IMG/VR virus record: IMGVR_UViG_3300038679_000357
Span: 1-64,000 of that record
Strand: one strand, 5' to 3'
Length of the DNA stretch: 64,000 nt
From: a virus
Taxonomy: Duplodnaviria > Caudoviricetes
The stretch's first letter is position 1. Each line of letters starts with the position of its first letter. This document shows positions 22,054 through 36,159 of the stretch, one piece after another. The notes beneath the pieces were generated by a model. That model saw only the letters and a list, made by a program, of their open reading frames with translations, did no database searches and was not told the origin of the DNA. The position numbers were made by a program, and so were the translations under genes.

Positions 22054-22129
22054 TGGCGGTCTCGGGCGGAGTCGAACCGCCGACCAACGGTTTAGGAAAC
22101 CGCTGCTCTATCCTCTGAGCTACGAGACC
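22054..22129 (-). tRNA. tRNA-Arg(CCT)
   Basis: GCGGT-TTCCTAA-ACCGT. Confidence 0.95.
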
Positions 22130-28957: not shown

Positions 28958-29037
28958 TGGTTGCTGCAGCAGGAATCGAACCTACTTTCCGACAGGGCAT
29001 GCGACCTGCCACGATCTCCGACCGTCCTACAGCAGCC
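28958..29037 (-). ncRNA. tRNA-like RNA with 8-nt anticodon loop
   Basis: GGCAGG-TCGCATGC-CCTGTC, canonical T arm, CCA. Confidence 0.65.
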
Positions 29038-29092: not shown

Positions 29093-29187
29093 TGGTCCGT
29101 CAGGTGGGACTTGAACCCACATCAACCCCTTAGCCGGGGACATCCTTACCGTGTTAAAACACGGAATTTCCATTAGACGACTGACGA
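29093..29187 (-). ncRNA. tRNA-like RNA with hairpin inserted in the D loop
   Basis: GTCTAATGG[AAATT-CCGTGT-TTTA-ACACGG]TAAGGAT; loop CGGCTAA; T arm and CCA intact. Confidence 0.75.
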
Positions 29188-30425: not shown

Positions 30426-30502
30426 TGGTGGAACTAGAGAGACTTGAACTCTCGACCCCCTGCGTGCCACGCAGGTGCTCTAGCCAACTGAGCTATAGCC
30501 CC
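30426..30502 (-). tRNA. tRNA-Ala(GGC)
   Basis: G3:U70, CCTGC-GTGGCAC-GCAGG. Confidence 0.95.
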
Positions 30503-30510
30503 ATTAAGAA

Positions 30511-30679
30511 AGCCACCGTTTCCACCGGACGGGGCGACCAATCCCCGCGAGTGGAAACAACGGCAAGAAGAAAATGTCCAGGACCCGTCGATCCTTACCC
30601 CATGATTCCGTATCGCGAATGAGAATGCATGGGACAACTACGATCATCAGCCTACGCGGGCGTAGACCGTAGCAGGACA
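30511..30679 (-). ncRNA. two unassigned structured RNA domains
   Basis: TGTCC/GGACA enclosing CTACG/CGTAG and CCCATG/CATGGG; GTTTCCAC/GTGGAAAC enclosing CGGGG/CCCCG. Confidence 0.5.
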
Positions 30680-30687
30680 AAAATTAT

Positions 30688-30819
30688 TGGTGCCCGCCAG
30701 CCGGATTCCAACCGACCTCAGCACCCGCCGGTGCCTTCGCTTCACTACTCCGTCCATATGCGAAAAGAACGGAGCCGACGTCGAACGAGTGGGTTTTGCA
30801 ATTCCCATTATGCGGGGCA
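30688..30819 (-). ncRNA. tRNA-shaped RNA (132 nt) with long arms
   Basis: Acceptor, TGGG/CCCA D stem, CTCCGTTC/GGACGGAG, variable arm GCACC/GGTGC, T arm, CCA. Confidence 0.7.
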
Positions 30820-30825
30820 TTAAAT

Positions 30826-30974
30826 TGGACCGCGTGGGGAGATTCGAACTCCCGGTACGGGCGTGTCGAGGTCCATGCGCATGGGCGCGGGATCGTTTCC
30901 GTACTTTATGCGGCTCAGCCACTTGGAACCTGCAGGAATGCGCATCCCTACAAGCCTCGCAGCCGCCACGCGGA
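30826..30974 (-). ncRNA. tRNA-shaped RNA (149 nt) with ~50 nt anticodon insert
   Basis: CCGCGTG/CACGCGG, GGGAT/ATCCC, GGGAG-TTCGAAT-CTCCC, CCA. Confidence 0.75.
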
Positions 30975-30976
30975 TT

Positions 30977-31053
30977 TGGTGCGCCCGACAGGAATTGAAC
31001 CTGCAACCTCGTGAGTAAGAGTCACTTGCTCTACCAGATTAAGCTACGGACGC
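30977..31053 (-). tRNA. tRNA-Lys(CTT)
   Basis: GTGA-CTCTTAC-TCAC. Confidence 0.9.
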
Positions 31054-31058
31054 ATGGA

Positions 31059-31163
31059 TGGAGCCGGAAGGGCGTCCCGCCGGACGTGCGTTCCCAACCG
31101 GCATAAAGGGTTCGGTAGGCGTCACGACAGGGGGCGAACCATCTTTGTCGCGAGGCGTACCGA
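31059..31163 (-). ncRNA. unassigned structured RNA ending in CCA
   Basis: TCGGTA/TACCGA, GCGACA/TGTCGT, CCGG/CCGG. Confidence 0.4.
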
Positions 31164-31170
31164 TATTTGT

Positions 31171-31247
31171 TGGTCGGCCCGACTGGATTTGAACCAGCGG
31201 CTTCTACGTCCCGAACGTAGCGCTCTACCAGGCTGAGCCACGAGCCG
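31171..31247 (-). tRNA. tRNA-Pro(CGG)
   Basis: CTACG-TTCGGGA-CGTAG. Confidence 0.95.
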
Positions 31248-33554: not shown

Positions 33555-33721
33555 CCGACCGACCGGCGGGAGTCGAACCCGCAAATAATGCCCGCGTTGG
33601 ACTGCAGACATTTGGACGGTTTTTGCCATGATTCCAAACTACGCAGGATCGCCCTGCGCGGTCATTCCTTGTTAACGGCTTGACCTCGACCGTGTATGCC
33701 ATTTCCACCACGGTCAGTCGG
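33555..33721 (-). ncRNA. tRNA-shaped RNA (167 nt) with four hairpins replacing the anticodon arm
   Basis: 11-bp acceptor CCGACTGACCG/CGGTCGGTCGG, Leu-type D arm, canonical T arm. Confidence 0.8.
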
Positions 33722-34455: not shown

Positions 34456-34544
34456 TGGTGGGTGCTGAAGGAGTTGAACCTTCCGCCCGCCGCCGCACAT
34501 ATTAAAGGCGCGGGTTTTACAGACCCGCGTGTGGAACAGCACCC
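34456..34544 (-). tRNA. tRNA-Tyr(GTA) apparently lacking a D arm
   Basis: GGGTGCT/AGCACCC, GCGGGT-CTGTAAA-ACCCGC, long variable region, CCA. Confidence 0.75.
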
Positions 34545-35020
34545 ATTTTTCTTCCAGGGCAATAAGTTTCAGTCTGAGAGTGACAATTAGGGCATAAGAT
34601 GCGTAAATTTTGCATTCTATTATCGCGTGAATCTCCATTTATATGGTCTAAATGCAAAACCAACTTTTTTCCCCTCCACATTGGTAGTAACCCACATTCG
34701 CTACACTCATTCTTCAGAATGTCCAATTTGAATAGCTTGTGCTTCAAATTATGAGACGTCCATCCGGGACCATCCTTTACAAGAACATCTTTTATGAATT
34801 GTTCCTTGGAACGACAACCCTTCAGGGCACTAGCTCGATTGCGCTCTGATATGTCGAAATGGGAAGTGTTTATTCCATAAGATAGAACCTTTTTGCGAAA
34901 AATCTCATAATTACTCCCTCTCGGAATAAGACCCATGGATCGCATCGCTTCAGATATTGAATTGCTTTTAGAAATTGCTTCTGCAATTTCTTCCCTACTG
35001 TATGGAGCTTTTCTTGGCAT
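34517..35020 (-). CDS. HNH homing endonuclease
   Basis: CSEC..LDHINGDSRDNRMQNLRILCPNCHSQT; stop inside the tRNA-Tyr anticodon loop. Confidence 0.85.
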   Translation of the reverse strand: MPRKAPYSREEIAEAISKSNSISEAMRSMGLIPRGSNYEIFRKKVLSYGINTSHFDISERNRASALKGCRSKEQFIKDVLVKDGPGWTSHNLKHKLFKLDILKNECSECGLLPMWRGKKLVLHLDHINGDSRDNRMQNLRILCPNCHSQTETYCPGRKMGAVPHAGL

Positions 35021-35034
35021 AAACACCTTCCTTC

Positions 35035-35111
35035 TGGTATCCCGAGTGGGACTCGAACCCACACCATTGGGAGCTTAAATCCCATGCATCTGCCAATTGT
35101 GCTACCGGGAC
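35035..35111 (-). tRNA. tRNA-Leu(TAA) without long variable arm
   Basis: TGGGA-TTTAAGC-TCCCA, 5-nt variable loop. Confidence 0.85.
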
Positions 35112-35234: not shown

Positions 35235-35311
35235 TGGTACCGCAGGGGGGACTCGAACCCCCAACATTCAGATTTTGAATCTGACGCGACTGCCAATTGC
35301 ACCACTGCGGC
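35235..35311 (-). tRNA. tRNA-Leu(CAA) without long variable arm
   Basis: TCAGA-TTCAAAA-TCTGA, 5-nt variable loop. Confidence 0.85.
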
Positions 35312-35446: not shown

Positions 35447-35522
35447 TGGTGGGCGGTAAAGGACTTGAACCTTTATTTTGGCGTTCGTAGCGCCATGTCC
35501 TATCCTGTTGAACGAACTGCCC
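35447..35522 (-). tRNA. tRNA-Arg(ACG)
   Basis: TGGCG-CTACGAA-CGCCA. Confidence 0.9.
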
Positions 35523-36159
35523 ATGTTGATTTTACCTTGTCAACCCATCCTTGCAATCTATTACGAAGGGTCGTATCGTTGACGGAAACAGAGACAATGC
35601 CATACTGCGATCTCCTATTGGATACTTGCTTTTTTTCTTGGAAATGTATGTCATCTTGATGAACTCCAAGGGCATCAGCCCAAAAATCTCTCAGCTTTGG
35701 CAGCTCGCTCTTCTCGCACCACAATCTAATTTTCACCCTTCTGACCGAAAACAATTTAAGATGTTCGAAGCACAATAAAATAATCAAAGGATCTGTATTG
35801 GCTACCATTACAGAGTTTTTCGATCTCCGATGTCCCTCTCCAATATAAATACACACAAAGTCTCTCACAAGGAGATTTTTCTCCATTAACACATCGGCTT
35901 CATCCCACCCTGCTTTGTACGCTGCCTCTCTCTGCAAACGCCACTTCCACTGAGTGTCTCTCCCCTTGGTCTTCTCACCATTTTTTCTCCTAGCCCTCTG
36001 CTGAATATTTTCGCCATCAATTTCAGGGACGTCCATATCTTTTATCCAGCTATAAACAGTTGCCTTAGATGCCCCGAATGTTTGTACAAGAGTAGGGAGA
36101 GACGCTCCTTGACTTCTCATTCTTCTCACTTCTTGGATAATCTCATTTCCGTATTTCAT
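35500..36159 (-). CDS. HTH plus LAGLIDADG-like putative endonuclease
   Basis: N-terminal HTH (ASKATVYSWI), CIYIGEG..NTDP; stop inside the tRNA-Arg D loop. Confidence 0.6.
   Translation of the reverse strand: MKYGNEIIQEVRRMRSQGASLPTLVQTFGASKATVYSWIKDMDVPEIDGENIQQRARRKNGEKTKGRDTQWKWRLQREAAYKAGWDEADVLMEKNLLVRDFVCIYIGEGHRRSKNSVMVANTDPLIILLCFEHLKLFSVRRVKIRLWCEKSELPKLRDFWADALGVHQDDIHFQEKKQVSNRRSQYGIVSVSVNDTTLRNRLQGWVDKVKSTWAVRSTG

Follow-up and report, generated by a model that had tools for sequence, protein, structure and literature searches.

The first 64 kb (positions 1 to 64,000, hereafter the window) of the 255-kb IMG/VR virus record IMGVR_UViG_3300038679_000357 contain a large array of transfer RNA (tRNA) genes and, within it, two tandem tRNA-shaped RNAs of unusual size, which we call RNA A (149 nucleotides, nt) and RNA B (132 nt). 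A sequence-only reading of the window had pointed to both of them, and we find them where it placed them, on the minus strand and co-oriented with the 46 tRNA genes. Our reading, which we think rather probable, is that both are small stable RNAs of tRNA-like form that do not decode, are matured by the enzymes of tRNA processing and most likely act as mimics of tRNA. Underlying this reading are the tRNA modules present in the two sequences, their setting in the array, the close match of RNA B to its counterpart in a related phage, and an insertion in a loop of RNA B there which rules that loop out as an anticodon loop. Processing, stability and any role in binding or as a decoy are what we infer for both RNAs.

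The record has a CheckV completeness of 97% and is present in four groundwater metagenome runs (DNA), whose contigs are identical to the window wherever they overlap it and gave no variant of the stretch containing the two RNAs. A class II ribonucleotide reductase, SbcCD-like, RecJ-like and PhoH-like genes, a Tad6-domain protein and TnpB indicate a large bacterial virus. All the tRNA genes that ARAGORN finds in the genome lie inside the window, all but one of them on the minus strand, and several HNH endonuclease genes and small open reading frames (ORFs) are interspersed with those of the array. RNA A starts 3 nt past the CCA of tRNA-Lys(CUU), with RNA B following after a gap of 6 nt, and the pair stands where a Gln-Thr-Pro-Lys block gives way to a 185-nt spacer, the last part of which, just before tRNA-Ala, is a conserved hairpin. 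A promoter and terminator scan of the region returned one promoter-like site, located in the T arm of RNA B and not kept in the relative described below, and no terminator call.

Sequence and fold of RNA A and RNA B

In RNA A, an interior of 113 nt takes the place of the approximately 41-55 nt of an ordinary tRNA (Table 1). The minimum free energy (MFE) fold of the RNA, at -64.9 kcal/mol (z = -2.2), arranges this interior as two long arms. Arm 1 opens with GGCU/AGCC at the usual position of the D stem and has AAGUGGCUG adjoining a hairpin of 13 base pairs (bp), and the palindrome AUGCGCAU caps both arms. We scanned the whole 255-kb genome for tRNA modules, defined as a 5-bp T stem with a UUCRANN-type loop, a 7-bp acceptor partner within 230 nt and an NCCA end. 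Of the 41 modules returned, 38 are known tRNAs; RNA A is among the remaining three, all of which fall in the array and on the array strand. Simulated sequence of genome or array composition yields approximately 0.4 such modules per genome, and the tRNA module of RNA A is far beyond chance. Its 7-bp acceptor, 5-bp T stem, UUCRANY loop, discriminator and CCA are all in place.

RNA B has the shape of a class II cloverleaf and shows the top half of a tRNA in part. The T stem and the ACCA end are there, but the acceptor is imperfect, with 4 bp, a bulged pyrimidine and 2 bp (or, alternatively, 8 bp with a tandem C.C/G.G mismatch), and the T loop, UUGGAAU with a G at position 56, is non-canonical. 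The earlier description of both RNAs as having intact acceptor, T arm and CCA is thus correct in full for RNA A, while for RNA B it applies to the T stem and the ACCA end. A 9-bp alternative hairpin competes with the T arm of RNA B, the z-score of its MFE is -1.05, and the predicted folding energy differs between the strands (-51.6 kcal/mol for the minus strand vs -35.8 kcal/mol for the plus strand). A covariance model of RNA B (R1) scores 172.5 and 209.6 bits on RNA B and on its homologue in the relative. The stable fold of RNA A ends in tetraloops, with no 7-nt anticodon loop on a 5-bp stem, and that of RNA B ends in an 11-nt apical loop, again with no 7-nt anticodon loop. Since neither stable fold offers such a loop, neither RNA is predicted to read codons.

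No copy of either RNA was found elsewhere in the genome, nor any repeated or mobile sequence matching them; the sequence ATGCGCAT occurs 6 times in the genome vs 3.4 expected. Predicted intermolecular pairing between RNA A and RNA B is no better than that of shuffled sequences.

Table 1. Positions of RNA A, RNA B, their parts and the upstream tRNA gene in the window
Feature	Position	Strand	Details
RNA A	30826..30974	-	149 nt (U-1 plus 148 nt), tRNA-shaped, two long arms, encoded UCCA end; from sequence, fold and module scan
RNA A, acceptor 5' strand CCGCGUG	30967..30973	-	Pairs with 30830-30836 (CACGCGG), 7/7 Watson-Crick
RNA A, arm 1 (positions 8-64)	30910..30966	-	Stem GCGGCU/AGCCGC, D-loop-like AAGUGGCUG internal loop, 13-bp hairpin (5 G.U, GCGC tetraloop); MFE fold
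RNA A, arm 2 (positions 70-119)	30855..30904	-	Stem GUACGG/CCGUAC and inner helices, second AUGCGCAU palindrome at the tip; MFE fold
RNA A, T arm GGGAG-UUCGAAU-CUCCC	30837..30853	-	From sequence and module scan
RNA A, acceptor 3' strand CACGCGG, discriminator U (U73), CCA	30826..30836	-	From sequence and module scan
RNA B	30688..30819	-	132 nt, class-II-cloverleaf-shaped; homologue in the relative L043:14865-15030 (166 nt); from alignment and covariance model
RNA B, acceptor 5' strand GCCC(C)GC	30812..30818	-	Position 6 bulged or unpaired: C here, U in the relative
RNA B, D-like hairpin UGGG-AAUUGCAAAA-CCCA (4 bp)	30790..30807	-	Identical in both phages; lacks the usual GG
RNA B, long rod at the anticodon-arm position	30737..30788	-	52 nt; apical loop 11 nt here, 46 nt with an extra hairpin in the relative
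RNA B, variable-arm hairpin GGCACC-GGCG-GGUGCU (6 bp)	30720..30735	-	One compensatory change, C-G to U-A, in the relative
RNA B, T arm GUCGG-UUGGAAU-CCGGC, acceptor 3' (U)GGCGGGC, discriminator A, CCA	30688..30716	-	Identical in the relative
tRNA-Lys(CUU)	30977..31053	-	Canonical, directly upstream of RNA A; directly followed by RNA B in the relative

The two RNAs in a related phage

A 500-kb JGI metagenome contig encodes a homologue, 85% identical, of the 219-amino-acid (aa) protein of 35500-36159. This relative, the only close one found, was analyzed as three overlapping loci (L043, L046 and L047) which together cover approximately 39 kb of syntenic tRNA array. There, tRNA-Lys(CUU) is followed by AUCCA and then directly by a homologue of RNA B. 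The two versions of RNA B are identical at 124 of 130 aligned positions (95%). Among the genuine tRNAs of the neighbourhood the corresponding identities are 93% for tRNA-Thr, 92% for tRNA-His, 88% for tRNA-Lys, 77% for tRNA-Ala and 66% for tRNA-Pro, and the spacer of 122 nt immediately 3' of RNA B is 64% identical.

The relative keeps 36 of the 36 modelled pairs of RNA B, with one compensatory change and two one-sided ones, the latter both in the rod (C-G to U.G and U.G to C-G). The two strands of the rod have each lost a single base, one at 44/45 and the other at 73, which fits the loss of a predicted G45.U73 pair. The remaining differences are a C to U change at the bulged acceptor position and one change in a loop, so that under the proposed structure all differences are neutral. 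Because two sequences carry no statistical weight, the evidence for selection on RNA B is the conservation contrast and not covariation: the 95% identity of RNA B, set against 64% in the adjacent spacer, supports purifying selection. By this comparison RNA B is a conserved gene of the phage lineage, its loops as strictly conserved as its stems. Since loops and internal loops are conserved, and not only the stems, the comparison suggests that RNA B is recognized by a partner in a sequence-specific manner. In the relative, the apical loop of the rod carries a 36-nt insertion that is itself a hairpin; a loop which tolerates such an insertion is no anticodon loop.

RNA A is absent from the relative, a clean presence/absence difference by BLAST over the 39 kb. 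UCC recurs at the two termini of RNA A, and UCCA is what the relative retains at this point, a pattern that a deletion there would explain as well as an insertion here. The two arrays also differ in a 109-nt block after tRNA-Pro, in a 231-aa gene and in the position of tRNA-Tyr. RNA A is lineage-specific and derives probably from the body of a tRNA gene refolded by a 50-nt insert. The earlier argument that retained pairing reflects selection gains from the intact pairs of RNA B, in one relative and with no statistical power from two sequences, and finds nothing in RNA A, which that relative lacks. In the same way, the erosion in close relatives that the sequence-only reading had named as grounds for refutation has not befallen RNA B, but the absence of RNA A from the closest relative means that half of this expectation fails.

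Further homologues were sought widely. Searches with blastn and nhmmer against 40 phage loci gave no true homologue, nor did GenBank phages searched in distant mode, exact patterns in IMG/VR, a homologue search of JGI metagenomes (two chance hits) or GTDB genomes (one chance hit in a coding region). Model R1, run over 37 sources and 10 whole jumbo-phage records, had no true match beyond those already known. With proteins as queries, the matches of an HNH endonuclease are mobile, not syntenic, and led to no relative; a second HNH protein and the Tad6-like, cREC and PhoH proteins returned nothing or distant phages without the RNAs, and the neighbouring 98-aa ORF has no homologue but itself.

Probable maturation, possible role and other explanations

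In the reading we prefer, RNA A and RNA B would be transcribed within the polycistronic tRNA array and host enzymes would mature both as they mature tRNAs, by RNase P cleavage at the 5' end, 3' trimming and CCA repair. The minihelix formed by acceptor and T arm constitutes, together with an encoded CCA and the close spacing between tRNAs, the substrate features for RNase P, for 3' trimming and for the CCA-adding enzyme. Processing like that of tRNAs is to be expected because this minihelix and an encoded NCCA are kept; here the sequence-only reading, which had both RNAs retain the features recognized by RNase P and the CCA enzyme, is borne out, in RNA B for part of the module. A phage protein could also be available for CCA repair: a nucleotidyltransferase domain of the PolyA_pol family (42 bits, above the Pfam cut-off) lies outside the window at G000:C1:215714-216103 (-), in a 788-aa open frame, and may belong to a CCA-adding or tRNA-repair enzyme. 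As mimics, the RNAs would use their tRNA top half to engage or titrate a tRNA-binding factor and their long arms for specificity, and the target could be a host defence directed at tRNA or a tRNA enzyme.

Several points weigh against this reading. Recognition of RNA B by RNase P and the CCA enzyme is assumed in the face of its imperfect acceptor, its non-canonical T loop and the competing 9-bp hairpin. Covariation in RNA B, with only two sequences, has no statistical power, as 254 of 500 shuffles match it. No search made gave a homologue of RNA A, which is absent from the closest relative and could be a recent and possibly functionless derivative. It also holds a latent Arg(CCU)-like cloverleaf whose score lies in the low range of the genuine tRNAs of the phage (see below). 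Lastly, mimicry, like the decoy and sensor roles named in the sequence-only reading, is a candidate role.

Decay of tRNA gene copies is the alternative that survives best, although we hold it to be unlikely. Both RNAs would then be functionless debris of rearrangements in an array rich in homing endonucleases. The array is dynamic, since RNA A, the 109-nt block, the 231-aa gene and the position of tRNA-Tyr all differ from the relative; several HNH endonuclease genes lie among the tRNAs, further aberrant tRNA-like units occur in this and in other phage arrays, and the relative does without RNA A. Debris, however, would hardly account for the conservation of RNA B, which outdoes that of neighbouring genuine tRNAs and far outdoes that of the flanking spacer, and the flawless acceptor and T stems and long near-perfect helices of RNA A are not expected of a decaying copy. 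Nor does any repeated or mobile sequence elsewhere in the genome match either RNA.

Slightly less likely still is that the modules serve as processing punctuation only, recruiting RNase P to cut the array transcript in the manner of the t-elements of plant mitochondria and releasing RNAs without a role of their own. Both RNAs do lie at a boundary, between the Gln-Thr-Pro-Lys block and the 185-nt spacer before tRNA-Ala, and the part that they keep is the tRNA top half. Yet sites for RNase P are already supplied by the flanking genuine tRNAs, the relative manages the same boundary without RNA A, and the loops and rod of RNA B are as strictly kept as its acceptor and T arm, which punctuation would not need.

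We also considered whether either RNA is, or contains, a decoding tRNA. Rfam, searched with all families over 30480-31200 at E-values up to 10, has no match on RNA A or RNA B, including RF00005 and the intron families, and ARAGORN calls neither of them at default settings. With a lowered threshold ARAGORN proposes for RNA A a Gly(CCC) tRNA with a 52-nt intron, a forced model with an unpaired 21-nt variable loop which we find unconvincing. Transfer-messenger RNA was rejected, as ARAGORN -m finds none and the acceptor does not contain G3.U70. So was tRNA-Tyr, which came into question since ARAGORN lists tRNAs for every amino acid except Tyr: a GUA loop is seen in neither RNA, and a separate Tyr(GUA)-like gene is present at 34456-34544.

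As a more general probe we deleted from each RNA, one at a time, all contiguous segments of 15-99 nt and submitted the remainder to ARAGORN at default settings. A control, tRNA-Lys carrying 55 random nt in its anticodon loop, was recovered. For RNA B, 0 of 3570 variants gave a tRNA. For RNA A, 31 of 5015 did, and the best of these, with positions 42-91 removed, is a 98-nt Arg(CCU)-like cloverleaf with an ARAGORN score of 112.2, compared with 105-127 for the genuine tRNAs of the genome. This model builds the anticodon stem from the two AUGCGCAU copies, has UUCCUGA as its loop and places the insert at canonical position 37/38.

These results allow RNA A to be seen as an interrupted tRNA-Arg(CCU) whose 50-nt insert is removed or displaced to give a decoding tRNA, which we consider improbable. 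In its favour are the score within the genuine range, the U33 and the purine at 37 in the loop, and the fact that, when the interior is shuffled with the acceptor and T arm of RNA A retained, only 10 of 300 sequences reach 112.2; moreover, approximately 28 nt of the insert pair with the "exon" segments, as though locking the tRNA body. That level of approximately 3% is weak after the examination of many models, though, and the model itself has a weak D stem (3 bp and a mismatch) and a 22-nt variable region that is unusual for Arg. By sequence inspection the junctions of the insert have no bulge-helix-bulge motif, the MFE fold is more stable than the cloverleaf with the insert by 6.7 kcal/mol, and the excised product does not fold as a cloverleaf. 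The core of a group I intron needs far more than 50 nt, so the insert is much too short to be one. Of splicing machinery the phage genome shows no match to PF01974 (EndA) or PF01139 (RtcB), nor to the RNA ligase families PF09414 and PF09511, the last of these being a weak blank as its positive control was empty too. Finally, the array already has a canonical tRNA-Arg(CCU), at 22054-22129. The suggestion that the RNAs are precursors awaiting protein-catalysed splicing consequently finds no footing in RNA B, where no excision gave a tRNA, and in RNA A comes down to a marginal Arg(CCU) model which shuffled sequences can match, in a genome with no EndA or RtcB match.

A related and marginally more doubtful idea sees in RNA A a conditionally active tRNA. 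By pairing with five separate segments of the body (approximately 28 nt), the insert produces the two-arm fold; it would lock the Arg(CCU)-like body through these segments until its removal or displacement, by some nuclease/ligase pair or a trigger, freed a decoding tRNA. If true, this would be a type of switchable or spliced tRNA not described in bacteriophages. The Arg(CCU)-like cloverleaf may, however, merely record the descent of RNA A from a tRNA gene.

Protein coding deserves next to no credence: open frames are present on both strands (30647-31006, minus, 119 aa; 30687-30998, plus, 103 aa), but both begin with TTG, and they are excluded because in the relative two single-base indels break the frame in RNA B, which also carries the 36-nt insertion, and the RNA A part is wholly missing.

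Similar RNAs in phages and other features of the array

Returning to the view of RNA A and RNA B as tRNA-like stable RNAs, both fit a pattern seen for stable RNAs in phage tRNA clusters, that is, RNAs of 100-170 nt which are co-oriented with tRNAs and abut them. A partial likeness to tRNA without decoding capacity is found in RNA A, in RNA B and in rnaC of phage T4, and for T5 it is known by annotation alone. In T4, tRNA-Arg, the last tRNA of its cluster, is followed by rnaD (species 2, 119 nt) and then by rnaC (species 1, 139 nt), in tandem, abutting and co-oriented like RNA A and RNA B, and the cluster likewise holds a homing endonuclease gene. T4 rnaC resembles RNA B in combining a T arm (canonical, CCGGG-UUCGAAU-CCCGG) with an imperfect acceptor (U.U mismatches), one long arm and a second hairpin. 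The differences are also clear: there is no similarity in sequence or profile, R1 giving only 5 bits, on the T arm of rnaC; no CCA is encoded at the annotated end of rnaC (70908), where the genome has ...UUUCGUA-CAAAC; the fold of rnaD gives no clear tRNA module; and the perfect acceptor and two-arm body of RNA A have no T4 counterpart. RNAC and RNAD of T4 are expressed, and their function was still described as unknown in a transcriptome study of 2022 (PMC9697503).

In T5, RNA1 (144 nt) and RNA2 (125 nt) are annotated as "tRNA-like stable RNA with unknown functions" and lie in the tRNA region among HNH endonuclease genes. A tandem runs RNA1-RNAI-RNAIII, and RNAI, RNAIII and RNAIV adjoin, which resembles the tandem of RNA A and RNA B; R1, however, has no match over a whole T5 RNA, and the likeness of architecture is known from annotation alone. 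Applied to the T4 and T5 loci with filters off, R1 picked up nothing but ordinary tRNAs and fragments of T arms, at up to 10 bits, and Rfam holds no family for the T4 and T5 stable RNAs. Given that there is neither such a family nor an R1 match, we take the relation to these RNAs as analogy and not as demonstrated homology.

Compared with canonical class II tRNAs (Leu, Ser and bacterial Tyr), RNA B shares the acceptor, the 2-nt linker, the D hairpin, a central arm, the variable hairpin, the T arm, A73 and CCA, and departs from them in having no 7-nt anticodon loop, a 52-nt central arm with an insertion-tolerant loop, a D loop without GG and G56 in the T loop. The same phage has another oversized tRNA-shaped RNA, of 167 nt, at 33555-33721, on the same strand of the same array, also without an anticodon loop and also present in the relative. 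In contrast with RNA A and RNA B, to which it has no sequence similarity, it has no CCA, and it is 75% identical to the relative vs 95% for RNA B. Such units are in fact wider than this phage: oversized tRNA-shaped units with perfect acceptor, T arm and CCA, all missed by ARAGORN, occur in other phage arrays at L003:10831-10932 (-), L018:7073-7174 (-) and L047:18487-18592 (+). The first two are 102 nt long, with a 13-nt "anticodon" loop and a long variable arm, and the third is 106 nt long.

tRNA-like stable RNAs beside phage tRNA genes have been known for decades from T4 and T5, with their function still listed as unknown, and genes of the same kind are now seen in a giant environmental phage that is unrelated to them and has a nearly complete set of tRNAs. 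RNA B belongs to a known kind but represents it with unusual clarity and strong conservation, and so lends itself to an old and unexplained question. That it is held more tightly than the real tRNAs around it argues that RNAs of this type are not leftovers and that they perform a task which depends on the sequence of their loops as well as of their stems. Being compact, strongly conserved and provided with an encoded CCA, RNA B is a good candidate for asking what such RNAs bind, and candidate partners include aminoacyl-tRNA synthetases, the CCA-adding enzyme, EF-Tu and defence nucleases that target tRNA. The presence or absence of RNA A, together with the other aberrant units, shows that large phage tRNA arrays go on producing new tRNA-derived RNAs.

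Around the two RNAs, the array has further features of its own. Just 5' of tRNA-Ala(GGC), at 30510-30565 (-), is a long hairpin, GCCGUUGUUUCCAC...GUGGAAACGGUGGC, with an inner GCGGGG/CCCCGU stem and then UUUCUU. It is kept in the relative with three fully compensatory pair changes, the spacer preceding it being 64% identical, and it may serve processing or attenuation where the RNA A/RNA B block ends. The 117-nt spacer between tRNA-Pro(CGG) and tRNA-Lys(CUU) (31054-31170, -) is 88-92% identical to the relative, like the tRNAs, and holds hairpins; the relative has the extra 109-nt block upstream. The adjoining tRNA-Pro (31171-31247, -, vs L043:14476-14552) is syntenic, with anticodon CGG here and UGG in the relative, a largely rewritten anticodon stem and 66% identity.

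The Tyr(GUA)-like gene at 34456-34544 (-) is an 89-nt tRNA missed by both ARAGORN and Rfam. Its acceptor is perfect (GGGUGCU/AGCACCC), its anticodon stem of 7 bp carries the loop CUGUAAA, and a T arm and ACCA are present, with only 8 nt for the D arm and a long, poorly paired variable region; the gene runs into the 3' end of the HNH ORF 34517-35062. The array would have no other Tyr decoder; the relative has a canonical tRNA-Tyr (L043:12308-12395) and no homologue of this gene. ARAGORN also passes over a 77-nt gene of tRNA shape at 28958-29034 (-), which has a perfect acceptor, a T arm and CCA and is 84% identical to L043:15715-15791, in a different place of the array. The 95-nt "Val(AAC)" that ARAGORN does call, at 29093-29187 (-), combines a poor D arm with a UUUUAAC-type loop region; L043:16126-16201 is a tRNA with anticodon UUA (ochre-reading) beside Leu(UAG), and there is no clear homology between the two. 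Finally, tRNA-Leu(UAA) and tRNA-Leu(CAA), at 35035-35111 and 35235-35311 (-), are only 77 nt long, without the long variable arm expected in a bacterial Leu tRNA, and have the same lengths in the relative.

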